A stretch of DNA of 63,349 nt, counting the filler, from Anaerolineae bacterium (lineage in GTDB: Bacteria; Chloroflexota; Anaerolineae; Epilineales; Epilineaceae), in assembly GCA_029262755.1 (NCBI GenBank). It is 5 parts of 5 records of this genome, joined end to end, with 100 filler letters (N's around TTAATTAATTAA, not from the genome) between each part and the next. Parts side by side here need not be neighbours in the genome. Positions count along the whole stretch, not along the records: positions 6,569 to 19,822 come from JAJCYU010000101.1; 4 more parts are not named here. The stretch is one strand, 5' to 3'. How positions within the stretch are numbered: position 1 is the first letter of the stretch; each line of letters starts with the position of its first letter. The notes under the pieces were generated by a model. The model searched no databases. It saw only the letters and a program-made list of their open reading frames with translations, and was not told the origin of the DNA. The position numbers and the translations under genes are program-made. Shown here in pieces: positions 6,469 through 57,955 of this stretch.

Positions 6469-6568
6469 NNNNNNNNNNNNNNNNNNNNNNNNNNNNNNNN
6501 NNNNNNNNNNNNTTAATTAATTAANNNNNNNNNNNNNNNNNNNNNNNNNNNNNNNNNNNNNNNNNNNN
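6469..6568. other. Artificial contig spacer
   Basis: N-run/TTAATTAATTAA/N-run, giving stops in all six frames. Confidence 0.98.
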
Positions 6569-8232: not shown

Positions 8233-9189
8233 TCAGTCCCCGGAAATGCGGAACGCCTGCACGACGAACACGGTGATGAGGACGATGACGAGCGCTTGCG
8301 CCACGGCGCGCGCCCAACTCGCAGGCATGCTGCGGCGCGCCGGCGGGGGCTCGTCCGCGGGAGGCAAGAGTCCTTCATCCGTGGGACGCGGCGCTGGTGG
8401 GCCGAGCGTCGGCGGTAACGGCGCCGGTGCCGGAGGCAAGACGACGATGGGCGCCGGCACCGTCGACGACCCAGCGCGGGTAGGTAGCGGCCGCATCGTG
8501 GGCGGCGCTGCGGCGCGCATCGGGTCCGGCGGAGGCGTCCGCTCCGCTGCGCCGCGATAGGATCCAAGATCCATGACCCAAACCCAGCCATCCCACGCGG
8601 TGGGCGCGGCGCCCATGCCGACCTCGTGGTAGACGGAACTGAGGACGTTGATAGCGTGCTCTTCGTGGCCCATCCACCAGGCGAAACCCTCATCGACGGT
8701 AGTGCGCGCGACAAAATTTTCGCCGATCCATACGTTCGTCTCACCTAGCGCATACCCGGCATCCAGCACGCGTTGGCGCACCGAACGGCCGTCCAGGCCT
8801 GTATGGCTGAAGTTCTCGTTGCGCGCGATCTCCGCTGCGTGCAGGCGGGCCACACGCTCGAGGGTTGGATCGATTCGGTACGTGGGCAGGCCGGCTTCCG
8901 CGCGCGCCTGGTTGACGCGTTGGAGCATGGCGTCCGCCATCGTAGCCGGCGCAGGCTGGGCCGCGACGGGACGGACGACACCCTGACCCGCTGCGCCAAG
9001 ATCCAGCAATGCGAACAGGCCGATGCCGAGCACGACGCCCATGCGCAGGCCGAGGAACGACCGTTTCGCGCGACGTGCGAATTCAAATCGGCGCGCACGA
9101 GCAATGGCGCGAAGCGTGCGTAGGACGCGTGTCGAGAGCCGATTCCCGGCTTCTTCGTGCGGTCCACCCCGGACGCACACGGGCGTCAC
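8233..9189 (-). CDS. CAP/SCP-domain protein with Pro-rich linker and C-terminal TM anchor
   Basis: VNQARAEAGLP, FSHTG, IGEN, WMGHEEHAINVL...EVGMG. Start uncertain: GTGA overlap at 9189 or ATG 9042. Confidence 0.8.
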   Translation of the reverse strand: MTPVCVRGGPHEEAGNRLSTRVLRTLRAIARARRFEFARRAKRSFLGLRMGVVLGIGLFALLDLGAAGQGVVRPVAAQPAPATMADAMLQRVNQARAEAGLPTYRIDPTLERVARLHAAEIARNENFSHTGLDGRSVRQRVLDAGYALGETNVWIGENFVARTTVDEGFAWWMGHEEHAINVLSSVYHEVGMGAAPTAWDGWVWVMDLGSYRGAAERTPPPDPMRAAAPPTMRPLPTRAGSSTVPAPIVVLPPAPAPLPPTLGPPAPRPTDEGLLPPADEPPPARRSMPASWARAVAQALVIVLITVFVVQAFRISGD

Positions 9190-9905
9190 AGCCTCCGGAT
9201 CCGCCGTCCTGCTCGGTCACCGGGCGTCGCCAACGTCGGACGGCTGCCCTGAGCCGCGAGCCACGCGGCGAGCGTCCGCATCCCCATCGGCTCGAGCCTC
9301 TGCCGCATGCGCGCGAAAATGCCCCAGGTAACCGCGACATCAGCCGCCGCACGGTGCAGCCTTCCGGTGGGCACGCCGAGCTCGCGCGCGACCTCGCCGA
9401 GCTTGTTGCTACGGAAGCGGTACCAGCGACGGGCGAGCAGCAACGTGTCGATGGCGGGCGTCGCGGCCGGTTCGTGGCCGGCGCCGAGCAACTCGTGGCG
9501 CAAGAAGCCGAGGTCGAAGGGTGCGTTGTGGGCGATGATGACCGCACCATGGAGTTGGCGAAGCAGCGCGGGCGCGACGGCCTCGAAGGGCGGCGCGTCG
9601 GCCAACTCCTCGTTTGTAAGGCCGTTCACGCGGGCGGCGTTCGGCGCGAGTGGGCAGCCTGGTGCGATCAGGGTCGACCACGGTTCCGGCGACGGTCCGG
9701 GATCGCCGCCGGGCGGCACCCGCAGTACGGCAATCTCGCACACGCGGCCCATCGGCCCTGGACGCAGGTCCGTGGTCTCGACATCGACGACGGCCAGCGG
9801 CAGCGAGGCAAGCGTAGCGGTCGAGTCCGGGACGCTCGCATCGCGCTCTGGCCGGATCGGGCGGCCGTTGCCCGCGGGCTGTGTGGCGAATAATTGGTTG
9901 CTCAT
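9186..9905 (-). CDS. DEDDh 3'-5' exonuclease (DnaQ/Pol III epsilon-like)
   Basis: VVDVETT, AHNAPFD and LHRAAADV motifs. ATG 9905 lies 6 nt downstream of TACACT. Confidence 0.9.
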   Translation of the reverse strand: MSNQLFATQPAGNGRPIRPERDASVPDSTATLASLPLAVVDVETTDLRPGPMGRVCEIAVLRVPPGGDPGPSPEPWSTLIAPGCPLAPNAARVNGLTNEELADAPPFEAVAPALLRQLHGAVIIAHNAPFDLGFLRHELLGAGHEPAATPAIDTLLLARRWYRFRSNKLGEVARELGVPTGRLHRAAADVAVTWGIFARMRQRLEPMGMRTLAAWLAAQGSRPTLATPGDRAGRRIRRL

Positions 9906-9936
9906 GCCGTTAGTGTAGCGCCCAAGGCGTATCTCG

Positions 9937-12390
9937 CTAGCGTTCGAGTGCGGGGGAGCGCGCTTCCGGTGGAGAGACGGTGCGTTCGACCGAGAGAATG
10001 ACCGTGCCATCGAGGACGCCAGCGCGCCGCGCGACCCATGGCAAGGTGATCTGAGCGCGCACCTCAAATCGCGGGGAAGGGTGGAATGGCCACACGCCTC
10101 CTTCCAGCGCGATGGGGAGATGGATCCGTACCGAACCGCGCACCGGGGTTGGGCGCGCCGTGGTCGCTTCGGTGGCCGTTGGAGAGGGGCCGAGCGTCGG
10201 GGTGCTCTCGATGGGCGGCGTCGCGCTCGCCGGTTGCAACGTCTCGCCTGGGCGCGGCGTGTTTGTCGGCGTCGGGGTGAAGGTGGGCGTTCGCGGGCCG
10301 CTGAAGGTAGGAAGTGGAGTCGGGGTTATCGTCGCGGTCGGGCGCCGTGTCGCGGTGGGCAGCGGCGTGGGCGACGGTCCGTCGGTGGGCACCGGCGTGA
10401 ACGTGGGGCTCGGGGTGCGCGTCGGTGTGAGGGTGATCGTGGGCGTCGTGCTTGCCGTAAACGTCGCGCTTGCCGTCGGGGTTGTGCTTGGCGTGGGTGA
10501 CGGGCCGTCGGTCGGGATTGGCGTGTCGGTGAGAGTCGGCGTTGGTTCCGGTGTGAGGGTCGGGCTGAGCGTTGGCGAAGGGGTGGGTGATACGGTCGAG
10601 GTCGGCGACGGCCCTGAGGTCGGCGGGCTCGTTTCGGTCGGCGAGGCGCTCGGCGATGGCGTTGATGTCGCGGTGGACGTCGGGGGGACCGCCGTAGGGG
10701 AGGGCGTGCGCGTCGCGGTGGGCGAGGGACCCGGCGTCGGCGTTCGGGTTACGGTCGGCGTCGGGGTGCGCGTCGGTGTCATGGTGGCCGTGGCCGTGGG
10801 CGTGGGGATCGAGGTTGCGGTCCGGGTCGGCGAGGGGCCGGGCGAGGGTGTGCCTGTGACGGTGGGCGTCTGTGTGTGCGTGGGTGTGGGGCTCGCCGTG
10901 GGTGTTCGGGTTGCGGTCGGCGAGGCTGTGGCGCTGGGAGGTAGGGTGGGCGTGCGCGTAGAGGTCGCCGTTGCGGTCGGCAGCGCGGTCGGCGTTCGCG
11001 TCGGCGTCCGTGTCGCGGTCGCGCTCGGGGTGAGCGAGGGAGTCGACGTGTTCGTTGGCGTTCGGGATGCAGTCGCCGTGGCCGTCGGGGGCAGGGTCGC
11101 GGTGGCAGCATCCTCGTTGCGCCAGACGCGGTCGAATTGGCCGAGGTTGGCGACGAAGGCATCGAGGTCCGTGTCACCGTCAAGGTCGCCAAACGCAACA
11201 CCGACGCCCGCGTGTTGGCCCAGCCGTTGGCCGGAGTCGGAGAAGCCGGCATCGCCGTCGTTGAACCACAGGGTGTCGGCCTGGCCTAGCCGCGTGAGAA
11301 ACACGTCCGGATCGGCGTCGCCGTCCACGTCGCCGATGGCGACGTCACGCGGGAACCCGTCGCCGAGACGCTGGCCGGAGTCGGTAAATCGGCCGGCTCC
11401 GTCGCCGAGCCAGACCTGGCCCGCGCCCGGTGTCGGCGTGCCCGCGGGATTGCCGAGATTGGTTAGAAATGCGTCCAAGACGCCGTCGTCGTCCAGGTCC
11501 GCCAAGACGATCGCGCTGATGGGGGGAGCGCTCAGCCGCCGACCGGTGTCGAAGAAGCGGCCCGTGCTGTCGTTGCGCCATACCTCCGCGGCCGCGTCCG
11601 CGCGACCAAGGACCAGATCGAGATCGCCGTCGCCGTCCACGTCGCCCAACGCGACCGCCAACGTATCGGACGCGCCGAGCCGCTGTCCGGAGTCAACGAA
11701 GGTGCCGGTGCCGTCGTTGAGCCACACGCGATCGGGCTGGCCAGGGGGCGCGGCGCCGGGATTCGCGGCATGACCCACCACCGCGTCGAGATCGCCGTCA
11801 CCGTCGACGTCGGCCAGCGCGACGTCGGTAGAGGGGGCCGGCCCGAGCCGCTGTCCGGTGTCGATCAGCCGGCCGCTGCCGTCGTTGCGCCACACCGTGT
11901 CCGGGTCCGGCGTCACCGAGCCGGTTGCCGGGCTGAAAAGGCCGAGGTTGGCCACGAAGGCGTCGAGGTCGCCGTCGCCGTCGAGGTCGCCCAGCGCAAC
12001 GGCGGACCCGTGCTCGGCGCCCAAGCGTTGTCCGCTGTCGACGAAGGATCCGCCGTCGTTGCGCCAGAGGCGGTCCGGTTGGCCGACCTGCATGCCGCCG
12101 GGTCCGAAGACGGAGCGATTGACCACAAAGGCGTCGAGGTCGCCGTCCCCATCCATATCGCCCAGCGCCACATCGAGGCTTTGCGTGGGGCCCAAGAGCG
12201 TGCCGGAATCGACGAAGAGGCCGGCTCCGAGCATCGAAGGCGCCGCGCCCGAACGTTGTGGGAGCTCGATGGTCGAGCCAAGCCACCCGCACAGCAGGAA
12301 AACGACGCTCAGCCCAACGCCCGCGCGGCGGGCGCCCTTCGGGGCGGCCCGCAGCACGTTCACGTTGTTGGTCGATCGGGAGGGGAACAT
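9937..12390 (-). CDS. Secreted FG-GAP/VCBS-repeat beta-propeller protein with long Thr/Pro stalk
   Basis: Seven repeats like [17 protein letters not shown]...VWRNDG.G.F.DSGQRLG, then a long T/P-rich region, then RIHLPIAL and ITLPWV motifs. Confidence 0.88.
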
Positions 12391-12475
12391 AGGGCGCCGT
12401 GCCGGCCTCGGCGGGGCATCGCGTGGCGATGTCGCGCGGGCCTCGCGATGCCTCGGAACAAGAACCTGGCTTCGG

Positions 12476-13882
12476 CTACTCCACCGGCACGCGGCCGACA
12501 CGCACGGCGGCACGATACGCGAGCCGGAAGCGCGCGAAGGCGTCCTTGTACTCGCCCGCATCGAGGTGCGCGATTGCCGCATCATATTCGGCCTCGGCGT
12601 TGCGCACATCGTAGCCTGCGCCCGAAGGGCCGTTCATGTCGATGGTATCCCGCACGATGAAGCGAACGCTCAAATCGTCCTCGGCGTCCAGAAATCCACC
12701 TTCCGAGGCAGGTAGCTGGAAGAGCGCGACCCGTTGGTCGCCTTCAAGCAGCAATGCGTTCTCGATGGCCACGCGCAGCTCCCAGAGACGATGGAAGTCA
12801 TGGCTCTTCTGCGTGGCCCGCGTGCTGACCTGCACATCGAGGTAGGCGTGCAAGATGCTGCGGTGGAATCCCTGCTCGCAGGAACCGTTCAGGTTGTATG
12901 CGAACTCCACCGAATCGGCGACGATCTGCAGGGCGGTGGTGGCCACGGAGCACGCGATCTTCAAGGGGTTCGGGATCTCGGCGCCCGTGACGGGAAAGAC
13001 GTCACCGTCGAAATAGGAGCACACGGCACTCGCGGTAAAGGCGACGGTCTGCAGTGCGAAGACGGTGGCAATGCCACCAGCCGGGGAGGGCGGGCAGCCG
13101 GCGCAAGTGGAATTCTCGGCGAAATCCGCGCAGTTATCCCACTGATCGACCGCGGAGCTCGGCACCGCCGGGAGCGGGTTCGGAGCAACGACGGCTTGCA
13201 TGATCGCATCCGTCACGGCCAATTCCGGCAGTAAGGCCGCACCGCGCTGCGGGGCGGGTCCCTCACTGGATCCGGCCCGCGGGATTGCCTGCGTCTGCGC
13301 CTCGAGTTGCGCGAGGGCCGGCCCGCCCTGCACCAATTCCAGGGCCAACTCCGGGGCATCCCACATACCGGGGAAGGGCCGGAAGGCCTCGTCGATGGCG
13401 AAGAGCTCTTCCGCGCTCATCTGGGCCAACGCGGCTTGGGCGGCCTCCAAGCGCTCCATGGCGTCCAGGCGGTCGGCCGAGCGCACGGTGTCCAGCAGCG
13501 AGCCGATATCGCTGTAGTAGGCGTCGAGCTGCTCACGAAGTGCTTCGAGGTCCTGGGAGGTCGAGGCCGTTCCCGCGGTCGTGTCGGCCACAATACGGTC
13601 CGCGAGCAGTGGCTGCACATGATCGGCCCACAATTGCTCCGGCGCGCGGGTCCGCAGGTACATGCGGGTCTGGGAGGCCTGGACGACGGAGATGTCGTCG
13701 TCCGCTAGAAAATCGGGCAGGTAGGATGGGCCGACGTGCTCCGCGGAGGCGATGGTGGCCCCCTCGTCCTGCGTGTCACCGTGCATCGCCGGCGCGGCCT
13801 GCGCAGACGCCGCGGCGAATGCGAGGGACATCACGGCCGCCGTACTCGCCGGCCCCAGGTGCTGCCATCGTCGCGAGCTCAT
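12476..13882 (-). CDS. Secreted hypothetical protein, paralogue C of tandem trio
   Basis: ATGA overlap with paralogue B stop; signal peptide ending ASAQA; shares CAGCP, FALQ, IPNP, G.HR, AIEN, FQLP and AYR motifs with A and B. Confidence 0.8.
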
Positions 13883-15330
13883 CGTTGCTCCTTCTGCACC
13901 GTCTTGCGATAGGCGCGGCTGTAGCGTTGGTATGCCGAGCGCCACTCACCATCGGCGTAGTGGGAATCGCCGGCGGCGATCTCGGCTAGGGCGCCGTTGA
14001 CATCCGTAAGCATGTCCGAACGGATGCTGGCGCGCACCGACTGGTCGGTAATCAAGCGAGCGAGCTCGAGCTGTCCGCAGAAGCGGAAGCCCTCGTAGCC
14101 CGTCATCGTGGTCGTGTCATCCGGAACTTCATCGCTGCAATGCGATCCGGGCAGCTGGAAGATCGCGACGTGATCGTCCGGTTCTTTCAGCAGATCGTTC
14201 TCGATCGCGATGCGCATCTGCAGCGCTGCGTGCGCATCGAGGCTCGCCTGTGTCACACGAGAGGATATCGTGGCATCGAGGAACAGGTTCTCCAGCCCGC
14301 GATGCAGGCCCTCGACGCAGTTGTCCGCCAACGCGTTGTTGAACTGCATGGCGTTGATCGTGAAGCCCAAGGCCACGCGGATGCTGTTGGCGACGTAGTA
14401 GGCGATGTTCGGAACCGGTGCCGGGATGCACGCCGGCGCGATCACGACCTCGGTGTCCGGATCGATGGAGGCGGTGACGGCGTCGGTGATCGTCAACGCC
14501 TGTTGGAGCGCAAAGATGACAGCCGACGGAATGAAGATCGGACAGCCGCTGCAGTTGACAGAGCCAAAGCTACCCGGGCAGCCGGGACGGTCGTCCGGCG
14601 CCGGGGGTAGATCGCCCCGGGGCGGGAACTCCGGCATGACAGGGTACGGGGCCACGGCCGTGGCGTTGGGCGTCGGTACGGCGAGGATGCCCGCGGCGAG
14701 TTGCGGTAGCGCGCGCGTTTCGTTCTCGTCGAAGCCGCGCATCAGCGCCGCCGCTTCGCCGTCGATCGCGCCGCGCGCCTGCCAGTCGCCAAGCTGCGCG
14801 TGGAACCAGGGCGGCGCCGCGACGCCGGGATCTTCCATGGATTGGAGTAGACCCGGCAGCTGCCAGAATCCGGGATGATCGCCCAGGAGCGCGTCGAGGA
14901 GCAGCCATTCTTCCGGACGCACCTCTTCCAGACGTGACTCTACTTCTTCGAGGTAGCCATCGGGCTGCGGCAACGTGGTTTCGGTAAGCGCAGGGAACAC
15001 GATCTGCATGTCGTTGATCCACTGCGTCAGCCGTTGCTCCATGTCCGCGGCATCCGCCTTCTGCACGGCGTTCAGGCTTGCGCCTTCTGCATCGAAAGTC
15101 AGCGAGCGAAGGGTGTCCTGAGGCAGGCCCGTCAACGCGGAAAGGCTGACGAGCGTGGGGTCCTGCGCGAGTTCGGCGGCGTCGTCCTGCGCGTAGACGG
15201 ATACGGACGATGTCAGCGCCGCCGCGAACAACGCGACGCCGAAGCCGGCGGCAATGCGCCTTCTCACGGGGCCCGTGAAACGAGAGCGCACGATGGCGCG
15301 CACCTTTGCGCGAAACGTGGGGCGGGTCAT
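13879..15330 (-). CDS. Secreted hypothetical protein, paralogue B of tandem trio
   Basis: ATGA overlap with paralogue A stop; signal peptide ending VYA-QD; long near-identical blocks with A (e.g. NLFLDATISSRVTQ, EGFRFCG). Confidence 0.82.
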   Translation of the reverse strand: MTRPTFRAKVRAIVRSRFTGPVRRRIAAGFGVALFAAALTSSVSVYAQDDAAELAQDPTLVSLSALTGLPQDTLRSLTFDAEGASLNAVQKADAADMEQRLTQWINDMQIVFPALTETTLPQPDGYLEEVESRLEEVRPEEWLLLDALLGDHPGFWQLPGLLQSMEDPGVAAPPWFHAQLGDWQARGAIDGEAAALMRGFDENETRALPQLAAGILAVPTPNATAVAPYPVMPEFPPRGDLPPAPDDRPGCPGSFGSVNCSGCPIFIPSAVIFALQQALTITDAVTASIDPDTEVVIAPACIPAPVPNIAYYVANSIRVALGFTINAMQFNNALADNCVEGLHRGLENLFLDATISSRVTQASLDAHAALQMRIAIENDLLKEPDDHVAIFQLPGSHCSDEVPDDTTTMTGYEGFRFCGQLELARLITDQSVRASIRSDMLTDVNGALAEIAAGDSHYADGEWRSAYQRYSRAYRKTVQKEQR

Positions 15331-16853
15331 CGTTGCACGTCCGGTCGGGCTGCCGCTCGGTAGGCTTGGCTGTAGCGTTCGTAGGCGGCGCGCCATCGAC
15401 CGTCCATGTAGTGCTGGTCGCCGGCGGCCAGCTCCGCCAGGGCGCCGTTGACATCCGTGCGGCCCTCGATGGTTGCGCTCTGCCGTATCCGGTCTGCAAC
15501 GACCTTCCGGGTGAACTCCAGCTTGCCGCAGAAGCGGAAGCCCTCAAAGCCGGTCATGAGCGGCGTGTCATCCGGTACCTCGTCGCCGCACATCGAGCCC
15601 GGAAGCTGGAAGAGCGAGACGCGGTCATCCCGCTGCTCGAGCAGGTTTTCTTCGATCGCGAGCACCATGCGCATCTCGGCATGGCGGTCGAGACTCGATT
15701 GCGTCACCCGGGATGAGATGGTGGCGTCGAGGAAGAGGTTCTGTAGCGCCCGGTGAAGGCCCTCCTGGCAGTTGGATGCCAGCGCGTTCTGGAAGTTGAG
15801 GGCACGCACCGTGTACTGCAGACCGAGCCGAATGCTGTGCAGCACGTAGAAGACAGGGTTGGGCAGCGTCAGGCACACGCACGCTACCACCAACGTCACA
15901 CACAGGTCGGTGTCGGGATCGGCCGGATCGACGGGCAGCAGCTGCTTGTTCTCACGGCTCAGCTTCTGGAGCGTGGCGTTACCCGACGCGCTACCGATTC
16001 CGGCGAGCGTCGCGCGCGTTCCGCCCATCAACGTGATGGCCTGTCGCAGTGCGAAGATCGCAGCGGAGGGCACGCTGGCTGGACAACCGGCGCAATCTCC
16101 CCCGCCGAAGGAGCCCGGACAGCCCGCACGATCGTCCGGTGCCGAGGGAAGATCCCCACGGGGCGGAAACTCGGGCATGGTCGGGAAAGGCACGGTTGCG
16201 GTTGCATTCGGTGTCGGCACCGCGGCCTGCTGCAAGGAAAAGAGTGCCGCGGCCTCGTCGGAGCCCGGCAGGACGTCGGCGGGCCATTCGGCGATAGCGC
16301 GCGCAAACAGCGGCGGCGTCGGCTGTGAGGGATCGCGCACGGACTCGATGAACGCGGGGATCTCCCAGAAGACGGGATCCTCGCTCAGCTGCGCATCGAG
16401 CATCGTGATCTCGTAGGGGGTCAACGCGGTGACGCGTTCCCGCAACGTGTCGTAGTAGCCCTCGGAGCCGGGATCGACGAACTCGTCCAAGTTGGGAACG
16501 GCGCGCTCAAAGTCGTTCGTCCACGCCAACAGCTTCGCGCGGACCGCCTCCGCATCCGCCGCATCGACCGATTGGACGGCCATCGCGGTTGCAGCATCGG
16601 ATGTGCCGGTCCCGGAGGCATGAAGGTCGGCCCGGATGCCCAAGAGGTCGCTCAGCGAGAGACCGGGCAAATCGGCGTCTTGGCCGGCCGTGCCGGATCC
16701 CGTGCGCGCGGTTGGGCTCGGATCGGCCGCCGAGGCTCCCGCGGCCACGCTCAGCGCAGCTACGACAGCCAGTACCGCGCTCACGATGCCACGGATGGCG
16801 TTGGAGCGGCCTATGTGCATCGTGCGCTTGGCCGTCGGGGCGACATGTCGCAT
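15327..16853 (-). CDS. Secreted hypothetical protein, paralogue A of tandem trio
   Basis: Signal peptide (VLAVVAALSVAAGASA); Cys-rich core. Start at 16853 or 16820. Confidence 0.8.
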   Translation of the reverse strand: MRHVAPTAKRTMHIGRSNAIRGIVSAVLAVVAALSVAAGASAADPSPTARTGSGTAGQDADLPGLSLSDLLGIRADLHASGTGTSDAATAMAVQSVDAADAEAVRAKLLAWTNDFERAVPNLDEFVDPGSEGYYDTLRERVTALTPYEITMLDAQLSEDPVFWEIPAFIESVRDPSQPTPPLFARAIAEWPADVLPGSDEAAALFSLQQAAVPTPNATATVPFPTMPEFPPRGDLPSAPDDRAGCPGSFGGGDCAGCPASVPSAAIFALRQAITLMGGTRATLAGIGSASGNATLQKLSRENKQLLPVDPADPDTDLCVTLVVACVCLTLPNPVFYVLHSIRLGLQYTVRALNFQNALASNCQEGLHRALQNLFLDATISSRVTQSSLDRHAEMRMVLAIEENLLEQRDDRVSLFQLPGSMCGDEVPDDTPLMTGFEGFRFCGKLEFTRKVVADRIRQSATIEGRTDVNGALAELAAGDQHYMDGRWRAAYERYSQAYRAAARPDVQR

Positions 16854-16966
16854 AGGAATCCATTCGCGGAGTGGTTTGAGCGGCGCGCAATCCACATCGT
16901 TCACGCGTGGCCGGACGAAACACGAACACGCAGTACAAGATAACGCAGTGTAGGGCCGCAACGATA

Positions 16967-16988
16967 CGGGACGCTCACGAGCGTCCCG
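16967..16988. promoter_or_regulatory. Perfect 10-bp inverted repeat in divergent intergenic region (operator candidate)
   Basis: CGGGACGCTC-AC-GAGCGTCCCG. Confidence 0.45.
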
Positions 16989-17307
16989 CTATCAACGAGC
17001 TACTGCGACGAACCGGGCTTCGCACGGAGCGCCACCTACAAGAACGAATTCCGGAGGCGAAACGATACGCGCTCCTCGCGACGAATGTGAATGCACCGTG
17101 AGTCGCCAGGACCCGTATCTTGGCGACGCCTCATACCGTTCTAATCACGGGGGCGCACACCGCGCCTCTCTCTTGCCGTACATCGAGTCCGGATTTCGGA
17201 ATTCGACCAAAATTCTTGATCCACCGAGACGTCCGCCTCGCGACGTCGTTCGTATCAAATGGAGCGCCGCCGCCGCGGCGTTTCGCCCCGCGCCAGGAGT
17301 CTGACGC

Positions 17308-19822
17308 ATGCGCCCTGCCATCTCGGGCCTCACGCTTACCCGCGCCCTTCTAGGGCTTCTCTTTCTCGCGATCTTCACGCTCGGAACTTCGGTTTCCGCG
17401 GCGCCGCGCGATGGATTGGCGGATGACGTCGGGGGGAGTGCGTCGCAATCCGAACGGCCGCAACTCCAACCGGGGGAAGTGGGATCGGCCCCGGATTCGA
17501 ATCAAGACGGTGCGCGCGACGGCGGCGTGCGCACGGCGGGTACGGCGGGCGTGGATGCGATTCTGCCCATGTCGGAGGGATTCGAGGCCGGCCTCGGCGA
17601 CTGGGTCGTTTCGCCGATGGGCGTGGACGTGCTCCAGGCGAGCGACCTCGATCGCTTCGCCGTGGGCGACAACAACGATCCGGAGCCCACGGAGGGCGAT
17701 CGCTTCGTCCTGCTGTGCAACGGCCCGGAGGCTCGCGGCAACGCGAACCCCACGGACTCGGGCGTCAACATCGACGGCGACGCGGACAACAATTCCGACA
17801 ACGACGTAGCGTTCATCCGTCAAACCTTCACCTTGGCGCCGCACGAGGTGCCCGCCACGCTCAGCTTCGACTGGAACTTTCTGACCGCGGAGAGCGACGG
17901 CACGGTCATCCCCGATCCCTTCGACGACATCTTCCATGTCACCTTGCAGCCGGGCCAGCCACCCATCCTCGCCGGAAGCGTCCCCGGCGGCGGCCCGTCG
18001 CCCTATCCGAACACGCCGGTGGACGGCGTCGAGATCGAGGTCACGGGCGGCAGCCTGACGCGCGGCTGCAACTTCGAGTGGGGCCAGAGCGGCTTCCGTA
18101 CCTTCCAGCGGCTCATGACCGCGCCGGGCACCTACACGCTTGAGTTCCTCGTGGCCGATCAGGGCACGGACGACTTCTTCATCGACTCCGGTCTGCTAAT
18201 CGACAATATTCAGATCACACCCGAGGTCGACATGGTGGTCACGAAGGCCGCCAACCCGAACCCGGCCATCGCCGGCGACGCGCTCTTCTACGAGATCACC
18301 GTGCGCAACGACGGCAGCGGCCGCGCGACGGCGGTGGTCGTCACGGACACGTTGCCCGCGGGCGTGACCTACATCGCCGCGGATGCCCCGCCCACGGATG
18401 ACGGCATGGGCGGCCCCGTCGTGGATCCCGCCTGCGCCGAGACGGCGCCCGGCAGCGGCATCGTCGTGTGCCAACTCGGCACCTTCACCGGTGGTGAGCA
18501 GAAGGTCTTCCGGATCCAGGTCGAGATCGACCCGGAGGCGGTGGCCAACGGTGCAGAGACGCTGACCAATTCGGTCGTGGTCGACAGCTTCCAGCTCGAT
18601 AGCAACGACGCCAACAACACCTTCCAGCTCGTCACCTTCTTGGACGACCTGGCCGATCTGGCCGTGTGGAAGGTCAGCAAGCCGGACGACAGCGTCCGCG
18701 CCGGTGAGATCTATACGTATACGATCCTGGTCGAGAACCTCGGCCCAAGCACGGCGCGCGAGGTGGTCATCAGCGACACGCTGCTCTCCAACGGCGCCTT
18801 CACGCTCGTCGCGCTGCTGGACGATCCGGCCCGGGCAGGCGACGTATGCACTACGGTGCCCGCGCCCGCGCCGCAGTCGGGCCAGATCATCAACTGCATG
18901 CTCAACGAGACGCTCGAGCCGGTCGGCAGCGGCTTGGGTAGTGGGCGTTGGACGATTCAGGTGGAGGCGACCGCCTCCGAGACGCAAGACGTCAACAACG
19001 AGGTCCGCGTCTTTACCGTCGACGATCCCACGACCGGTACGCCCGGCACGCCGGATCCCGATCTCTCGAACAACCTTGCCGTAGACCGCATCTCGATCCT
19101 GGACACGAGCGACCTGCTCCTGACCAAGGTCGGATTCGGCGAGGTCCAGGACGCGGCGGCCTGCGGCGTGTTCACCGTCGAGCCCGATGCGGTAACGGCC
19201 GGCAGGCTCGTTACGTGGACGTTGCAGGTTACCAACCAACTCGTGGCGCTCGGCGTTCCGGGCGGCAGCACGGCCACGGATGTCACTATCGAGGACTTCG
19301 TGCCCGTGGGCGTAGAGATCGTGTCCGTGACGCCGACGCAGGGCGCTTGTACACCCGGCACCCCCGGCTCCGTGATGGATCCCACGCGCTGCAACCTCGG
19401 CGTGCTCGTGCCCGGCGGGCAAGCGGCCATGCAGATCGGCGCACTCGTCGATCCCGACTACGTCGGCCTTTCCGACACGAACCAGCTCATCAACAGCGCC
19501 CACACCTTCAGCAACGAGATCGACCCCGACCTGTCGGACAACCTCGTCAACCAGACGACGCTGGTCAACGACGTAGCCGATATTGCGGTCACCAAGACCG
19601 CGACGCCGAACCCCGTGGTGGCCGGCACCGCGCTCTCCTACGAGATCGTGGTGACCAACGCCGGCCCGTCCACGGCGCGCAACGTCCTGGTGCGCGACCA
19701 GCTGCCGCCGGAGGTGAACTTCCACTCGGCCCGCATCGAGCAGATGGCGGGTCGCGAGAACTGCACCTATAGCGCCGGCGCCCACGAGGTCATCTGCTCT
19801 CTGCTCGATGTACCCGTCGGCG
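17308..19822 (+). CDS. Large secreted surface protein with DUF11-type Ig-like repeats, 3' truncated
   Basis: AGGAG RBS, signal peptide, N-terminal jelly-roll-like domain (SFDWNF...SGLLIDNI). Repeats of D..VTK....P..AG..L.Y.I.V.N.GPS.A..V...D.LP...DPDLSNN. Confidence 0.88.
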
Positions 19823-19922
19823 NNNNNNNNNNNNNNNNNNNNNNNNNNNNNNNNNNNNNNNNNNNNTTAATTAATTAANNNNNNNNNNNNNNNNNNNNNN
19901 NNNNNNNNNNNNNNNNNNNNNN
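19823..19922. other. Artificial contig spacer
   Basis: N-run/TTAATTAATTAA/N-run. Confidence 0.98.
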
Positions 19923-21678: not shown

Positions 21679-23466
21679 CTACGGCCAACTCTGGGACCAG
21701 TCGTGGCGGCCGCCGGGGCAGGGCACTTCGACGGCCAGCTGTCGGTAGATCGCGCGCAGCGCGGCCGCGTCGTCCGCGGCGCGGTAGCGAGCGGCATCGC
21801 CGGCCACGGAACGCAGCAGGCCAGGATTCACGTCGGCGCCGAGGCCCACGCTGAAGATCGTCGTACCGCGTGCGTCCGCGGCGCGCGCGGCATCGAGCAC
21901 CTCGTCGTCGCCCGTGGAAGGGCGGCCATCCGTCAGCAACACGATGGCGCGCGTTCGGCCGGCTTGCGGCGGCTCGCTGTTGAACAGATCGCGCGCCGCC
22001 AGGAGGCCGAGGTCGATGCGTGTGCCCTCGCCGTCCGGGAGCGCGTCGAGCGCGCCCCGCACCGCGGCGGCATCGTTGCTGAAGGCGATGAGCGGATGCA
22101 CGGACGCGTCGAAGCCGATAACGGCCACACGGTCCTGGGTCGTGCCACCGGCGCCGGCGGCGCCGGCCAGGCGCATCTGCTCCACGAAGGCGTGGGCGGC
22201 CCGTATGGCCGCCTCGCGCTTGCTCACGTCGCCACCCACCGCGGGCAAGCGCATGCTGGAAGAGACATCGAGCAGGAGCACGACGTCGACGCTGCGCAGC
22301 TTCGGATCGCAGCGCTCGCGCAGCATGACGGGCAGAAACGCGAAGTGGCTGACCATCACCTCGGGCACGGGGAACATGGCGCTGCCGGGGCGCTCAAAGA
22401 TATCGTGGAAGGTGGCTTCGGCCTCGACGTTGGTCGGCCAAATGCCGATTTCCGTGGGCCGGAGCCAGTAGGCGATCTCGATGCCGGCCTCCGGGACGGA
22501 GTCGAGCTCCCAGATGACCTCGTTGCCGCGGATATCATCGGGTGCCGGCTCGGCCGTGTTGACCAGGAAGCGCATGTTGTCGGGGATGACGTCGCGCACC
22601 ACGATCTCGGTCACGGTCGGCCTGCGCAGCCGCTCCGCGATCTTCTCGTAGATATCGACCAGGTCGGCCGCGGTCGGTGAGTCGAAGTACAGCGAAGGGC
22701 TCGAAGACGCGAGGCTCATGGTCAGGCGATCGCAGTCGTCGCCAAGGCAGACCGTTGCCAAGATCGCGCCGCCTGCACGCAACCGCGTGGCGGCGGCACT
22801 GGCAAGCCGGCGCGGGTCGTCGCCCGGATCGCCGCCGCCCGCCGTGTGACGGCCGTCGGAGAGCAGGATCACGACCTCGATGGGCGCGCTTCCCGCGGGC
22901 CAATGACTGTCGTTGCGCCCCGCGACCAGGACGCGCCCGGCATCGTCGAGCGCGCTGACGATATTCGTGCTGCCCTGGCTGACGATGCCGTCTACGGCCG
23001 TGCGCAAGCCCGCGCCATCCGCGCTGAGCTGGCTGACCACCAACGACGTCGTGTGAAAGGTGACGATGCCGACGCGGGTGATCGTGAAGTCCGTTTGATC
23101 GAGGAAGGTGCTCGCCGCGCGCTTTGCGAGGGTCAGCTTGCTGTCTGCGGCCATCGAGCCGGAATTGTCGATGACCAACACCACCTCCAAAGGCTCCGCC
23201 CGTTCCGGACATTCGGGCCGCGCGGTGAGCGTCACGCGCGTCCGTTCGCCGAGGGGCAGGCGCTTGGGGGAAGCGACCTTGTCGGTGTGCAACACACACG
23301 GACTTGGCTCGCGCGTGGGGCCCTGCGCCCGCACGTCCTCGACGAGCGTACCTTGGCCGAACGTAGCGGCTATCCCGTACACGAGACCGAGTACCACGAC
23401 CGATCGCACGAGGCGAAAGGACAGCCGCCGCGCCTCGAGGAGGCCGCTGAGATTCAAGCCCGTCAT
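21679..23466 (-). CDS. Secreted protein with two vWA domains
   Basis: MIDAS motifs IDNSGSM and LDVSSSM; LSDG and LTDG; internal FAFLPVM; ATGA overlap with upstream gene. Confidence 0.9.
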   Translation of the reverse strand: MTGLNLSGLLEARRLSFRLVRSVVVLGLVYGIAATFGQGTLVEDVRAQGPTREPSPCVLHTDKVASPKRLPLGERTRVTLTARPECPERAEPLEVVLVIDNSGSMAADSKLTLAKRAASTFLDQTDFTITRVGIVTFHTTSLVVSQLSADGAGLRTAVDGIVSQGSTNIVSALDDAGRVLVAGRNDSHWPAGSAPIEVVILLSDGRHTAGGGDPGDDPRRLASAAATRLRAGGAILATVCLGDDCDRLTMSLASSSPSLYFDSPTAADLVDIYEKIAERLRRPTVTEIVVRDVIPDNMRFLVNTAEPAPDDIRGNEVIWELDSVPEAGIEIAYWLRPTEIGIWPTNVEAEATFHDIFERPGSAMFPVPEVMVSHFAFLPVMLRERCDPKLRSVDVVLLLDVSSSMRLPAVGGDVSKREAAIRAAHAFVEQMRLAGAAGAGGTTQDRVAVIGFDASVHPLIAFSNDAAAVRGALDALPDGEGTRIDLGLLAARDLFNSEPPQAGRTRAIVLLTDGRPSTGDDEVLDAARAADARGTTIFSVGLGADVNPGLLRSVAGDAARYRAADDAAALRAIYRQLAVEVPCPGGRHDWSQSWP

Positions 23467-25556
23467 CGGCTACGCGCCAACGGCAGGAAGACCCGACCCA
23501 GGACGTCGATCGTAGGTGGAGCATCGGGATAGGCCGCGTCGCGCAGCACCCAACCATCGACGCTGCCGGCGGTCTCGCCGGGCAGCAAGACGAGGGTGTA
23601 CACGGATCCGGCCTTCAGCCACACGTCCTCGATGCGGCCGACCTCCGCGCTGCCGTCCACATCGCGTGCGACGATATCGGTGAAGCCTGCCGGCAACGAA
23701 ACGCGCGGCGAGGCCAGGCCAAAGCCGAGACGAGCGCTCAGCGTCGCGCCGCCGGAACCGGCGATCGCGAGCTTGGTTGCATCGGGTGCGGCGTGCACAA
23801 AGCGGATCGTGGCCTGCCCGTGCGCGGGACGGTCGAGCGCGTCGTCCAACCGCACGATCGCCTCGTCGTTGCGCCCGCCCAGGAAGAGCAGGCTCGTGGC
23901 CTTGTTGGCCTCAAGGATGATCGTGGTTTCCGCCAAACGCCGATCCGGCTGATCGACGGGCACGACCGCGAAGGTGTAGTCCTCGGCCGTATAGGATTGG
24001 TAATCGGTCGCGCGACGATAGGCCAGGTCGCGGACGGCCTCGAGTTGGCCCACGAGCAGGCTGACCGCGGGGGCGTCCGGCGCCGCATGCAGCAAGCGCA
24101 CCTTCGTCTCGCCACCGGGACGGCCGGGCGCACCGATGCGCGCATAGTCTTCGATTACCACGATCTGCCGATTCCCGGCCTCCGCGGTGCCGATCAAGTA
24201 GGCCGTGTTCCAGCTGTAGCCGGCCAGCTCCACGCCGGCACGACGCGCGATGGGGTTGCCTTGGGCGGGTTCGTTGAAGGCCAAGGTGTAGCTTGCGGCG
24301 GGGATCACGATGTACGGTTCCGCGCTGCCTCGCGCGAGCCCCATGGCAATCGGGACATCGGAGTTGCCGGACGCTTCCATGTTCATAGCGCCGAGGTCCG
24401 GCGCGAGGTGCACGGCGCGCAGGTGCGCGCGCGATGCGGATGCGCCCGTCGTGTCCTCCCACTCCAGGACGAGCACCTCGGGTGCATCGATGGTGCCGTG
24501 GATCGCGACCGTCGTGGGGCCGCCGATCGGCAGCGTGATCATCTGTTGCAGCAACGGCGCGCCGCCGCCTTCCGGGCTCACGGTCAACTGCACCTCGCCC
24601 GAGTCGACGCTCAGTTCCTCCGACGTCGATCCGAAGTTCATTTCCCAGGCAACGAGACGGTTGTCGAGCCGTACTTGGAGCGCTTCCGCTCCGACCAATG
24701 CGTGGAAGAAGCGTGCGTCGGCCGGAGCCGGTCGCGGCGTTGCTGTCGGGCGAAGGTCCGCTGTCGGTCGGGCGCCGCCGCCGCCACCACCGCCGCCACC
24801 ACCGCCGCCCCCGCCCCCGCTCGCCCGCGCAATATCGTAGTCGAGGATGACATCCAGCGATTGCGAGGATAGGAAGCCGACCACGAAGATCGTCAGCCCG
24901 TAGTTGGCGCGTACGTCGAGCCGGGGCAGGTCGAGGCGCACGGTCTGGTCGTCGCCGCCCGCGTCGCGCAGATCGACGCTCGTCTCGCCTTCGCGTTGGT
25001 CGATGTAGGAGGCGACGCCCTCGTACGCGATGTCGGTGTGCCAGCGATCCTCGTTGTCCTCGACCAGATCGATGGGGCCGAGATCGGGCGCAAGGTGCGC
25101 CACCCGCACCGCGCCTTGACGGTTGCCACGGCCGGCATCGAAGGGCAGGGATCCGTTGGGAATCTCGCGCAGTCCAAGATCGGTATTCGCGCCCGAGAAG
25201 GCCAGCGTCAGCACCGTGCCCGGTTCGTAGGTCACGTCCAACGTGGCCAGAATGGGTGAACGCAGCCCGGCCGGCCGGACCTCGATGCGATGGGAACGTC
25301 CGCCCTGACCCACGGGCGGCACCCGGTATTGTGTGATCTCCTTGTACAGGATGTCGGGGAACAGCGGCTCGCCGTCGACGGTCACGTCGATACCGGGCAC
25401 GTCGATCACCGCATGCACGATGCGGATCCCTTCCCGGTTCGGGAACCGTTGCGCCTCGGCCGGCTCGGGCGCGAGCGGCGCCAGCGACCACGCGGCCGCG
25501 ATCATCGCCGCGAGGGCGAGGGCTCTGCGGCTCGGGGTGAATGGCAGGATTCGCAT
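23463..25556 (-). CDS. Secreted protein with tandem DUF4397-type repeats
   Basis: GGAGG RBS, signal peptide; six (V/I)R..H..PD.P.VD-like repeat starts; poly-Gly linker; C-terminal RVFLPLAR. Confidence 0.85.
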   Translation of the reverse strand: MRILPFTPSRRALALAAMIAAAWSLAPLAPEPAEAQRFPNREGIRIVHAVIDVPGIDVTVDGEPLFPDILYKEITQYRVPPVGQGGRSHRIEVRPAGLRSPILATLDVTYEPGTVLTLAFSGANTDLGLREIPNGSLPFDAGRGNRQGAVRVAHLAPDLGPIDLVEDNEDRWHTDIAYEGVASYIDQREGETSVDLRDAGGDDQTVRLDLPRLDVRANYGLTIFVVGFLSSQSLDVILDYDIARASGGGGGGGGGGGGGGGARPTADLRPTATPRPAPADARFFHALVGAEALQVRLDNRLVAWEMNFGSTSEELSVDSGEVQLTVSPEGGGAPLLQQMITLPIGGPTTVAIHGTIDAPEVLVLEWEDTTGASASRAHLRAVHLAPDLGAMNMEASGNSDVPIAMGLARGSAEPYIVIPAASYTLAFNEPAQGNPIARRAGVELAGYSWNTAYLIGTAEAGNRQIVVIEDYARIGAPGRPGGETKVRLLHAAPDAPAVSLLVGQLEAVRDLAYRRATDYQSYTAEDYTFAVVPVDQPDRRLAETTIILEANKATSLLFLGGRNDEAIVRLDDALDRPAHGQATIRFVHAAPDATKLAIAGSGGATLSARLGFGLASPRVSLPAGFTDIVARDVDGSAEVGRIEDVWLKAGSVYTLVLLPGETAGSVDGWVLRDAAYPDAPPTIDVLGRVFLPLARSR

Positions 25557-25685
25557 CGGGGTCCTCCGGGGGGTGAGGGGGCCTGCCCTGCGGGGCTCGT
25601 TCATCAAGATCCTAACCAAATCGGGTGCCGCTGTATCCACGCCGGCGCCCTTTGTTGCTCATCGTACTGTTGGACGAGCCGCGCC

Positions 25686-27047
25686 TCAGGGCGTCTTGGC
25701 CGGGCCGATCAAACATCCGGCGCGCCAGATCACGGTGTTGTACGAGGGGTGATAGCGCTTGGTGCGATGCCAAAGGTCCAAGCACGTGCGCCGCGGGTTC
25801 GGCGGCTCGTCGTGCTGCGGATCCGGGTGAGGCGGCGAGCCCGGCTTGCTCTCGTCCAGAAGGCGGTTCCAGCCCCAGACGCGGGCGGGGTCGGCGAGTG
25901 CGCGTGCGATGATGGCCTGCGGCACCTCGCGCTGCGTCACCGCGCAGATGCAGCCGTCTCCGTTGGGCGGATCGATCACGCGCACCCGCGGCACGGGGAA
26001 GCGCAACGTGCCCGCAAAGCCGAGACCGTCCGTGTAGCGCGCGCTCGCCTGCACGTTGGTCGGCCACGTGCCCACCTCCTGCGGCAGCAGGCGATACTGC
26101 ACAAAGTCGCCGGCGTTGGGGATGTCGTCCAGACCCCAGATGAGCGTGCGACGCGTCGCGTCGTAGAAGGCGGGCGGCTCGGCCGACCCGTTGACGTATT
26201 GCATGTTGGCCGGGATCTCGTCCTCAATGGTGATCTCGGAGAACAGCACCGCGGCCTTGATGCGCCCGGCTATCTGGCTGTACACCTGGTTCAGCCGCGC
26301 GGAGTCCGGCGTATCCATGTAATGCGACGGCTTACCTGCGATGCGTCGAAGGACCCAAGACTCGGCGCCATCCAACCCGATGGTGTAGGTCTCGATCCCG
26401 TCGGCGCGTACCTGGTTGATCACGCCGTCGATGTCGCTGAAGGGCGGGTTGCGAACGGTGTGTCCACCATCGGTCAGGAAGATGAGCACCGGCGTGGCGT
26501 CCGGCCTATGGTCAGGACCGACCGCCATGCGTCGGCCCGCTTCGAGCGCGTCCACGATGTTGGTGTAGAGATCGAGTTGGATCTGGGAGATCTCCCGCTT
26601 TACCGCCGAGTAGTCATTGGTCAGCGTGTGCACGATGTGCGGGAATTGATTGAAGTGGATCGCCCCGACGTTGACCAACGTGGGGTCCATCAAGTCGACG
26701 AAGAGCTCGGCCGCGTCCTTGGCGCGCTCGAGGCGCGACGGGCTACCGGGACCACCGTCGCGATCGCGCATGGACAAGGAAGAGTCCAACACGAGCACGA
26801 CGTCGGCCTTGCGCTCCTGCTCGGGGCAATGGCCCGACACCGACAGCGTGACCGTGACCTGCTCGCCCAAGGGAATGGTGGCCGGCGCGGCTACCTTGTC
26901 CTGCGCCGTGACGCATGGATCGGCCGCAGGCTGAGCGCGGGCGCTCGAGCTCAACGCGGCGATCCCAAGCAGGAGGACCGTGCCGATTCCGGAAGCGACG
27001 AGGACGGCGATGCGCGTGGGGCGAAGCATACGGGAGGTCGAGGGCAT
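25686..27047 (-). CDS. Secreted vWA-domain protein with unnamed Cys-bounded C-terminal domain
   Basis: AGGAG RBS, signal peptide, LDSSLSM MIDAS, LTDG, WPTN...FPVP. Confidence 0.88.
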   Translation of the reverse strand: MPSTSRMLRPTRIAVLVASGIGTVLLLGIAALSSSARAQPAADPCVTAQDKVAAPATIPLGEQVTVTLSVSGHCPEQERKADVVLVLDSSLSMRDRDGGPGSPSRLERAKDAAELFVDLMDPTLVNVGAIHFNQFPHIVHTLTNDYSAVKREISQIQLDLYTNIVDALEAGRRMAVGPDHRPDATPVLIFLTDGGHTVRNPPFSDIDGVINQVRADGIETYTIGLDGAESWVLRRIAGKPSHYMDTPDSARLNQVYSQIAGRIKAAVLFSEITIEDEIPANMQYVNGSAEPPAFYDATRRTLIWGLDDIPNAGDFVQYRLLPQEVGTWPTNVQASARYTDGLGFAGTLRFPVPRVRVIDPPNGDGCICAVTQREVPQAIIARALADPARVWGWNRLLDESKPGSPPHPDPQHDEPPNPRRTCLDLWHRTKRYHPSYNTVIWRAGCLIGPAKTP

Positions 27048-27924: not shown

Positions 27925-28024
27925 NNNNNNNNNNNNNNNNNNNNNNNNNNNNNNNNNNNNNNNNNNNNTTAATTAATTAANNNNNNNNNNNNNNNNNNNN
28001 NNNNNNNNNNNNNNNNNNNNNNNN
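27925..28024. other. Artificial contig spacer
   Basis: N-run/TTAATTAATTAA/N-run. Confidence 0.98.
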
Positions 28025-41576: not shown

Positions 41577-42186
41577 GAGTCGCCTCCTGCCGCTGCGCAT
41601 TCGCCATGGCGGCGGCCTTGCGCAGCGCGCGATGCTGCAACACCTTGCAGTTGCCTTCCGTCACGCCCATCCGGGCTGCGGTCTGGGCGATGGTCATGCC
41701 CTGCAAGAAGCGCAATTCCAACACCTGCCTGTAGCGCGGCGGTAATGGAGCGAGGAGCCCGATTACCGACTGGCGATCCGCGGCGCGTGCACCGTCTTCC
41801 TGCACGCGAACCGGGTCCGGAATGCGGTCTGACAGGCTCACGTTGAGCCGGTAGCTGGCCGCTCTTCTGTGGTTCCGCACGGCGTTGCGCGCAATCTGGT
41901 ACAGCCAGTTCTTGAAGCTGGCTTCGCCGCGGAATCGTGCAATGGAGCGCATCATGCGAGCGAAGGTCTCGGCCGTCAGATCCTCTGCGTCGGCTTCGTT
42001 GCGCACCTGCGCCATGATGAATCGGTAGATCGGGCCGACGTAGCGGCGGTACAGCGTGCTCATCGCCGACTCGTCGCCTTCTACAAGGCGCTCTACGAGC
42101 TCGCTATCGGAAAGCTCGGGACTCGCGCCACGTGGACCGGGCGTTGCCGGTTGACCCCCGTTCCGTCGCGATGTCCGCGCGTCCAT
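41563..42186 (-). CDS. ECF sigma factor 2
   Basis: LYRRYVGPIYRF, DAEDLTAETF, WLYQIARN, TEGNCKVLQHRALRKA. Confidence 0.92.
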   Translation of the reverse strand: MDARTSRRNGGQPATPGPRGASPELSDSELVERLVEGDESAMSTLYRRYVGPIYRFIMAQVRNEADAEDLTAETFARMMRSIARFRGEASFKNWLYQIARNAVRNHRRAASYRLNVSLSDRIPDPVRVQEDGARAADRQSVIGLLAPLPPRYRQVLELRFLQGMTIAQTAARMGVTEGNCKVLQHRALRKAAAMANAQRQEATRVLR

Positions 42187-42426
42187 GTCGATCGTCCGCT
42201 CTCCAATCCGCAGTACTCTGTTCGAACCACCATACACCGGCACTCGTGTGTCCAAAGCCTCTGCGGGTAGGGACACGTCGAGGTTACAGATGAGCCTAGG
42301 CACGCTCACACCCTGTGCGGATGCCTTGGAGCACGGGCACGACCGTGACGACTTCCGCGCGACCACTATACTCTGGCTACGAACGTGCGCCATGTTCCGC
42401 CCCAGATTTACGCCGACGAGAGGCCC

Positions 42427-43116: not shown

Positions 43117-43120
43117 TCTC

Positions 43121-57855: not shown

Positions 57856-57955
57856 NNNNNNNNNNNNNNNNNNNNNNNNNNNNNNNNNNNNNNNNNNNNT
57901 TAATTAATTAANNNNNNNNNNNNNNNNNNNNNNNNNNNNNNNNNNNNNNNNNNNN
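57856..57955. other. Artificial contig spacer
   Basis: N-run/TTAATTAATTAA/N-run. Confidence 0.98.

Follow-up and report, generated by a model that had tools for sequence, protein, structure and literature searches.

We analyzed a 63,349-nucleotide stretch of DNA (the window) from an Anaerolineae bacterium (assembly GCA_029262755.1), in which three tandem genes, here called A, B, and C, encode members of what is, judging by sequence, an undescribed family of Sec-secreted, mostly helical, Cys-containing proteins, unnamed and without a domain model. Phylogeny and gene order indicate that the basic unit of this family is a pair, not a triplet, made up of two ancient types: type 1, duplicated here as A and B, and type 2, represented by C. 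Because this exported, Cys-bearing helical pair of two types is apparently co-translated and is wedged between genes for giant Ig-repeat proteins and genes for stalk or fiber proteins, we tentatively favor a structural role, in which the pair would form a disulfide-stapled helical heterodimer and serve a DUF11 surface fiber as a partner outside the cell (adaptor, base, or cap). The word new applies to the protein family and its fold; the function may yet turn out to be an ordinary structural one.

Paired genes beside giant surface-protein genes

In all nine places of the close subfamily, a type-1 gene is followed directly by a type-2 gene (the window; genomes G386, G290, G401, G402, G409, and G410; and metagenome contigs L025 and L026; the pairing in G401 was judged from coordinates alone). 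Six of the nine hold just one gene of each type; extra copies occur in the window (order 1-1-2), in G410 (1-2-1), and in L025, which has two full pairs. In a quick maximum-likelihood tree of 29 rows, none dropped and one partial, type 1 and type 2 form separate clades with SH-aLRT support of 99 and 98, respectively. A and B are sisters in this tree (SH-aLRT 99), as are the two type-1 copies of G410 (99). Given that A and B are sisters within type 1, they point to a lineage-specific duplication. An earlier reading of this DNA from its letters alone (the sequence-only reading) had proposed a tripartite complex; the term is not supported, since A and B both descend from a single ancient type and what is conserved is the type-1/type-2 pair.

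The pairing extends to a distant subfamily in the same order, which shares only about 20-25% identity with the close one; adjacent pairs are present in four of its five genomes. Across the order, 12 of 35 genomes have a family match, and 11 of these 12 have two adjacent family genes, so that homologs occur as neighbors and not as unlinked singletons. The family is rare in our sample of the phylum, where 6 of 401 genomes have any match, three of them strong (G000, the source genome; G290; and G386) and three weak and partial. The pair occupies one locus per genome.

A divergently oriented giant gene with DUF11 repeats adjoins the pair in all 12 places where that flank is present (the window, G386, G290, G402, G410, L025, L026, G407, G432, G418, G417, and G416). 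Two places fall outside this count: the G409 contig ends inside its type-1 gene, and G401 has only a CHRD match, about 3.5 kb off and on the other strand. In the close subfamily, the giant protein is 2,600-3,000 amino acids long, with a conserved N-terminal domain of about 230 residues, DUF11 repeats, and one CHRD domain, the last seen in five of seven places, with contig ends cutting the other two. In the distant subfamily (G407, G416, G417, G418, and G432), the giant has about eleven Big_3_5 repeats and a DUF11 domain. On the other side, 3' of the pair, there is an FG-GAP stalk gene in all seven close places that we examined. The same position in the distant subfamily holds a protein of about 500 residues with a Peptidase_S74 ("chaperone of endosialidase") domain in three of five genomes and two convergent FG-GAP genes in G407; the G417 contig ends there. 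The Peptidase_S74 chaperone domain is a mark of trimeric fibers. The arrangement of pair and surface genes is thus kept across both subfamilies despite their low identity, and the co-occurrence with DUF11 and FG-GAP genes that the sequence-only reading had put forward is seen in 12 of 12 places for DUF11 and, in the close subfamily, in seven of seven for FG-GAP.

The family and its predicted structure

A and B are 45% identical (E 1e-141), and A and C are 29% identical across the C-terminal 296 residues (E 4e-23). These values bear out the view of the sequence-only reading that the three are paralogs, A and B close and C divergent, and several of its other descriptions also stand. The motifs that it listed are present in our alignment, both the more N-terminal ones (P.FW..P, C-x8-C-x2-CP, FAL.Q, PN, and C..G.HR) and those of the C-terminal region (LD...S.R.TQ.S.D.H, IE..LL, FQLP, and AYR). 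Each protein begins with a basic stretch, a hydrophobic stretch (hydrophobicity, as KD19, of 2.28, 1.74, and 1.36 in A, B, and C), and an Ala-x-Ala-like site, so a signal peptide on all three is supported by a heuristic on N-terminal composition. The three tandem genes are open reading frames on the minus strand, linked as described by ATGA overlaps; the A/B and B/C junctions are both CAACGATGA, in which the stop codon TGA overlaps the following ATG. Pfam matches likewise confirm a co-directional gene for an FG-GAP protein with a Thr/Pro stalk and a divergent DUF11 gene.

A, B, and C contain nine, seven, and six Cys residues. Four Cys are invariant in the family alignment, three in the C-x8-C-x2-C motif and one on a long helix, as is the polar motif D...S.R..Q.S.D, whereas the His that follows the fourth Cys varies. 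It is plausible from the structural model that the four invariant Cys pair up as two disulfides, pinning the N-terminal loop to the long helix; A and B, with their odd numbers of Cys, may keep one of them free in the hairpin tip. A Pro-rich linear motif (P.MPEFPPR..LP), conserved in type 1 and lying in a linker modeled with low confidence, may be a docking peptide. C is without the Cys-bounded loop of type 1 (C...MTGYEGFRFCG), and its C terminus carries a type-2 tail. A has a 28-residue insertion preceding the hairpin, and its tip is more hydrophobic than those of B and C: the KD19 maxima at the tip are 2.12 in A (residues 318-336), 1.45 in B (295-313), and 1.32 in C (307-325), with values in the tip of B reaching 1.45-1.66. 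This hydrophobicity is confined to one short stretch of at most 19 residues, broken by Pro and Cys, and does not form two spans; the type-2 tip is polar.

The Pro-rich linker also contains an RGD tripeptide (FPPRGDLP) in A (about 16150-16160) and B (about 14610-14625), and an integrin-like FG-GAP propeller gene adjoins. We rejected RGD as a feature of the family: other type-1 proteins carry R-T-S, R-G-P, R-D-P, and the like at this site, so its presence in A and B is probably a coincidence.

Scoring a nine-sequence profile against 1.84 billion representatives gave a family of 497 proteins at E<=1e-3, of which 135 reach E<=1e-10 and 18 reach E<=1e-30. Most representatives share the C-terminal third, with the motifs LD..SSR.SQ.S.D, RIE..L, and R.SLFQLP and a helical bundle ending in AY..YR.AY. 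Almost all have a signal peptide and, after it, an N-terminal module (FR..L...L...P.W) in one to six copies, and their Cys counts are mostly even. We scanned 131 of the 150 listed representatives against Pfam, and only two have a domain above the cut-off, in both cases outside the family region. One, P0090, has a beta-propeller, cadherin, and Ig domains, then several SSRASQ repeats, and then the family C-terminal module; the second is a fragment with a piece of AcrB.

The sequence-only reading had recognized no family here, and our searches of Pfam, NCBIfam, PHROGs, PADLOC, and PDB profiles and structures agree. Scans of A, B, and C against Pfam-A and NCBIfam at E<=0.1 returned no family, save two chance-level matches in C, and PHROGs and PADLOC gave no match in the family region for A, B, C, or any of five distant members. 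PDB profile searches found only a weak apolipoprotein-like stretch and, at the extreme C terminus, one TPR-like motif that matches designed TPR proteins (E 1.2e-4 to 1.7e-3); this is a single motif with no repeat array, and no Pfam TPR match to A, B, or C was found. A third homolog search, with a broad alignment, gave nine proteins, named only "hypothetical protein" in any source. There was no tblastn match to B or P0036 among 72,556 plasmids, and no longer, fused form of B turned up when we looked for one, which is weak evidence. Among metagenome contigs, 175 stretches matched a search pattern and none was confirmed as a related locus; the listed matching sequencing runs were all of DNA, with no RNA run among those listed.

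An AlphaFold2 model of B has a pLDDT of 78.7. The N-terminal side consists of a helical domain (residues 88-198) and then the low-confidence Pro-rich linker that bears the Cys motif. The better-modeled core runs from a Cys loop through a helix (269-288), a beta-hairpin with strands of six residues each, a 50-residue helix (309-358), and a further helix (361-380) to a C-terminal three-helix bundle with the one TPR-like motif. Foldseek searches of the PDB gave best E values of 0.86 with the whole model and 0.6 with the core; the best E among the viral structures of BFVD was 0.53, and ESM Atlas gave no usable match. VIA, a search independent of Foldseek, covered 48,161 chains with a best Z of 8.4-8.7, in a range (Z below about 13) that is common for helical proteins; its best matches cover the C-terminal three-helix bundle, with or without the preceding helix.

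We also predicted the complex of B (residues 55-483) with C (32-468). Three runs gave ipSAE values of 0.74, 0.72, and 0.62 (median 0.72), compared with 0.00 for the best of three controls, with 367-474 contacts and a partner pLDDT of 66-68 (the mark being at least 65); the runs share at least 26% of their contacts. Of 157 solved complexes, 116 pass this mark, as do 2 of 215 mismatched pairs; these counts hold only roughly for B and C because we used our own alignments. The closest contacts join B 273 to C 327 at one limit and B 288 to C 309-312 at the other. In the model, B helix 269-288 lies antiparallel to C helix 309-331, and the N-terminal domains are also in contact. This antiparallel packing of the first helix of B on the long helix of C would bring both hairpin tips to one end of a four-helix unit. 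Binding of B to C is thus supported by prediction; of the co-assembly proposed by the sequence-only reading, the B and C part stands at this level, although the score does not tell a heterodimer from a homodimer.

Possible roles of the pair

In the arrangement that we tentatively favor, type 1 and type 2 would be co-translated and would lie side by side, joined by their long helical hairpins, as an elongated unit of four helices whose two beta-hairpin tips share one end. The heterodimer would then serve the neighboring giant DUF11 Ig-repeat fiber and the FG-GAP stalk protein as a structural partner, not as a free toxin. We infer the structural-partner role, the disulfide pattern, and the end that would face the cell. 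The sequence-only reading had offered a surface filament or adhesin tip as its alternative to a toxin, and this alternative fits the gene neighborhood better than the toxin analogy does.

Several observations weigh against a structural partnership. Gene linkage is a sign of shared function or regulation, not of physical contact, and the related genomes in which we see it are non-independent samples; the gene-context evidence covers the close places and the distant subfamily of the same order. Given that B and C are paralogs, a passing score cannot separate a heterodimer from a homodimer or a general tendency to dimerize. No wall- or membrane-anchor motif was found in mature A, B, or C that would provide a route to retention at the cell. 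Finally, the 19-residue stretch at the tip of A equals a membrane helix in hydrophobicity (KD19 2.12), which would suit a membrane-active protein.

This last point belongs to an explanation that we consider quite improbable, namely that the pair is a two-component alpha-helical membrane-active toxin, with one component duplicated, whose soluble heterodimers would push their paired hydrophobic hairpin tips into a target membrane while the DUF11 fiber and the FG-GAP protein would hold the prey or competitor, together making a kit for contact-dependent killing. The proteins are indeed secreted, with elongated helical hairpins and a beta-hairpin tip that is strongly hydrophobic in A and less so in B. 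The subunits of bipartite YaxAB and XaxAB pair side by side, and the predicted dimer, with both tips at one end, resembles that pairing. In addition, grappling-hook fibers are reported to serve predation in Aureispira (bioRxiv 10.1101/2024.01.29.577165). Among alpha-pore-forming toxins, the ClyA family includes the tripartite Hbl, Nhe, AhlABC, SmhABC, and MakABE as well as the bipartite YaxAB and XaxAB (PMC6602965, PMC7979752). Like these toxins, A, B, and C are secreted, elongated helical proteins from adjacent paralogous genes, with a helix-flanked beta-hairpin, a hydrophobic tip in type 1, and a predicted side-by-side pairing of two different subunits. Unlike them, they show no match in sequence or fold above noise, carry conserved Cys that probably form disulfides, and include an additional N-terminal domain of repeats along with a C-terminal three-helix bundle; their hairpin, with its six-residue strands, is far shorter than a membrane-spanning tongue, its hydrophobic stretch is short and broken, and Cys are conserved in and around a tip that is polar in type 2. 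The analogy of the sequence-only reading to Hbl, Nhe, and Ahl fares no better in the fold searches: across the Foldseek and VIA lists, for the whole model and the core, the sole alpha-pore-forming toxin is XaxA (6gy6_A), at rank 39 and within the noise band (VIA against the B model: Z 6.3, root-mean-square deviation 4.1, 82 residues aligned). Moreover, there are two ancient component types and not the three of the tripartite toxins, the linkage to giant surface-fiber genes is constant, and P0090 fuses the family module to an Ig and propeller surface protein. Standing outside the ClyA family would still leave a small chance of a membrane-active role of some new kind.

The same conserved linkage would also be expected of an extracytoplasmic assembly or folding factor, a heterodimer that binds the giant Ig-repeat protein or the stalk or fiber protein transiently at export and is absent from the final structure. 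We regard this as rather improbable. The downstream partner varies between an FG-GAP stalk and an S74 fiber while the pair stays constant, and the Pro-rich motif of type 1 could serve as a docking peptide, both of which would suit such a factor. The core of B also has the order of secondary structure of prefoldin subunits (helix, beta-hairpin, helix), but the matches are at noise level (1fxk_A, Z 5.2, 82 residues aligned; 2zdi_A, Z 6.7, 85 aligned), prefoldin is cytosolic, no sequence similarity was found, and no chaperone on record resembles it above noise level. The ATGA coupling and the dedicated two-type pair hint at stoichiometric assembly, yet they fit a structural part and an assembly factor alike. 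In P0090, the C-terminal module is joined to a surface protein, which favors a permanent part. A comparably small chance goes to secreted proteins with a function of their own, such as ligand or metal binding by way of the invariant Cys and polar motifs, and with no tie to the surface genes beyond co-regulation. The four invariant Cys and the invariant D...S.R..Q.S.D motif are compatible with this; however, the mostly even Cys counts are what is expected of disulfides in exported proteins, the His that comes after the fourth Cys varies, and the linkage is kept between two subfamilies that have diverged so far.

Small helical heterodimers from tandem paralogs are familiar from the WXG100 proteins EsxA and EsxB and from PE/PPE. 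A, B, and C resemble these in having tandem paralogous genes and helical hairpins that, in the predicted dimer, pack as a four-helix heterodimer. In contrast, EsxA/EsxB and PE/PPE are short, are without Sec signal peptides, and use type VII secretion, whereas A, B, and C are proteins of 470-510 residues with signal peptides, Cys, and extra domains.

The closest known fiber is that of Litorilinea aerophila (class Caldilineae), in which the 6,596-residue DUF11 protein GhlA forms trimeric, polar "grappling-hook-like" filaments. Basal and accessory components of these filaments are not known, unassigned densities protrude from the filament, and the authors note "no interesting hits" beside ghlA (bioRxiv 10.1101/2025.08.19.671072; PMC13319060); Aureispira is reported to have GhpA with the basal parts GhpB and GhpC (bioRxiv 10.1101/2024.01.29.577165). 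Our locus comes from the same bacterial group, its relatives being labeled Caldilineae or Anaerolineales metagenome-assembled genomes (MAGs), and the pair likewise sits beside the gene for a giant secreted protein of DUF11 repeats; in single-membrane Chloroflexota, the accessory parts of these fibers are not known. The giants here differ from GhlA in being 2,600-3,000 residues long with a CHRD domain, or in having Big_3_5 repeats and a DUF11 domain.

A bolder version of the structural reading is that the pair is a new two-component, disulfide-stapled helical class, with a fold unrelated to ClyA, that forms the working end of Chloroflexota DUF11 fibers, either as the base or tip that completes "grappling-hook-like" filaments or as a membrane-inserting head for contact-dependent killing. 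We think this unlikely, but were it so, it would give a family of some 500 unannotated clusters a first function. Giant Ig-repeat (DUF11) fibers were observed on filamentous Chloroflexota only very recently, and their anchoring, capping, and use are not known; a conserved, co-translated, secreted pair beside DUF11 genes is a concrete candidate for the missing parts. Given that the family of 497 representatives has no name, domain model, or solved relative, one structure or pull-down would annotate hundreds of clusters.

The locus and other features of the window

The window consists of five MAG contigs joined end to end, with runs of N at 6469-6568, 19823-19922, 27925-28024, and 57856-57955; the source is a draft genome of 428 contigs that is 84% complete. 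The genes of interest all lie on a single 13,254-base contig (window 6569-19822). Because the contig ends at 19822, the DUF11 gene is cut there and the true local context is only about 13 kb.

Features of the A/B/C locus, in window positions
Feature	Position	Strand	Remarks
CAP (cysteine-rich secretory protein) domain protein and RNase_T exonuclease	8233-9189, 9189-10067	both minus	3' of the FG-GAP gene
FG-GAP beta-propeller protein	9937-12390	minus	817 aa (amino acids); FG-GAP_3 E 1.1e-36
Gene C	12476-13882	minus	468 aa; type-2 paralog; start overlaps stop of B (ATGA)
Gene B	13879-15330	minus	483 aa; type-1 paralog; start overlaps stop of A (ATGA)
Core of B (residues 235-483)	13882-14628	minus	AlphaFold2 model, pLDDT 86.9
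Beta-hairpin tip of B (residues 292-307)	14410-14457	minus	from the model; ends in conserved Pro-Asn
Gene A	15327-16853	minus	508 aa; ATG at 16853; type-1 paralog
Intergenic region between A and the DUF11 gene	16854-17307	none	454 bases; divergent
DUF11-repeat surface protein	17308-19822	plus	DUF11 E 1.2e-55; divergent from A; cut by contig end

The intergenic region between A and the DUF11 gene presumably holds the promoters. On the other side of the pair, the FG-GAP gene is separated from C by an 85-base gap, and the operon seems to end beyond it, where the genes for the RNase_T exonuclease and the CAP-domain protein lie.

The DUF11 protein starts with a signal peptide, followed by the conserved N-terminal domain and the DUF11 repeats. 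In the window, this domain spans 17560-18220 (about residues 85-305) and contains …ATLSFDWNFLTAESDGTVIPDPFDD…FEWGQSGF…DSGLLIDNI…; it is highly conserved in the CHRD-type giants of seven places and has no Pfam match. We rejected the idea of a common docking domain at the N termini of the giants, as this domain is confined to the close subfamily; the Big_3_5 giants begin directly with their repeats. CHRD was also rejected as a specific marker of the locus, being present in 23 of the 35 genomes of the order. DUF11 matches number from 54 to at least 150 per genome, in a limited number of giant open frames. In the source genome, outside the window (G000, contig C209), there is an open frame of 11,555 amino acids full of DUF11 repeats, longer than the published GhlA, as well as several further DUF11 giants of 2,000-5,600 residues.

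In the FG-GAP protein of the window, a Thr/Pro/Ser-rich stalk of about 400 residues leads to the C-terminal motif IHLPIA. The FG-GAP stalk proteins beside the pair all end in this way, with [IL][YHL]LP[ILF] and a few basic residues after about 400 Thr/Pro/Ser-rich residues and with no hydrophobic helix following the motif; the variants are IHLPIA, IYLPF, LYLPLL, LLLPIL, and IYLPIV (window 9937-10200, L016-L020, and L026). This motif may act at the C terminus as a so far undescribed signal for sorting or attachment. The proteins 3' of the distant pairs (L021 7234-8898, L022 9027-10487, and L024 10399-11943) have, besides a signal peptide, an Asp-rich motif similar to dockerin, repeats rich in Gly (…ATVGGG.xN.A.G…), the Peptidase_S74 chaperone domain, and a C-terminal coiled coil. 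From these features, they look like bacterial trimeric fibers of a build similar to that of phage tail fibers.

The remaining observations concern contigs of the window other than that of A, B, and C and are unlinked to the three genes. At 21682-27047, on the minus strand, there is a row of VWA-domain proteins and a DUF4397-repeat protein. More VWA proteins occur at 37969-44248, with an extracytoplasmic function (ECF) sigma/anti-sigma pair, and a non-ribosomal peptide synthetase module (C-A-T-TE) lies at 58667-63148.

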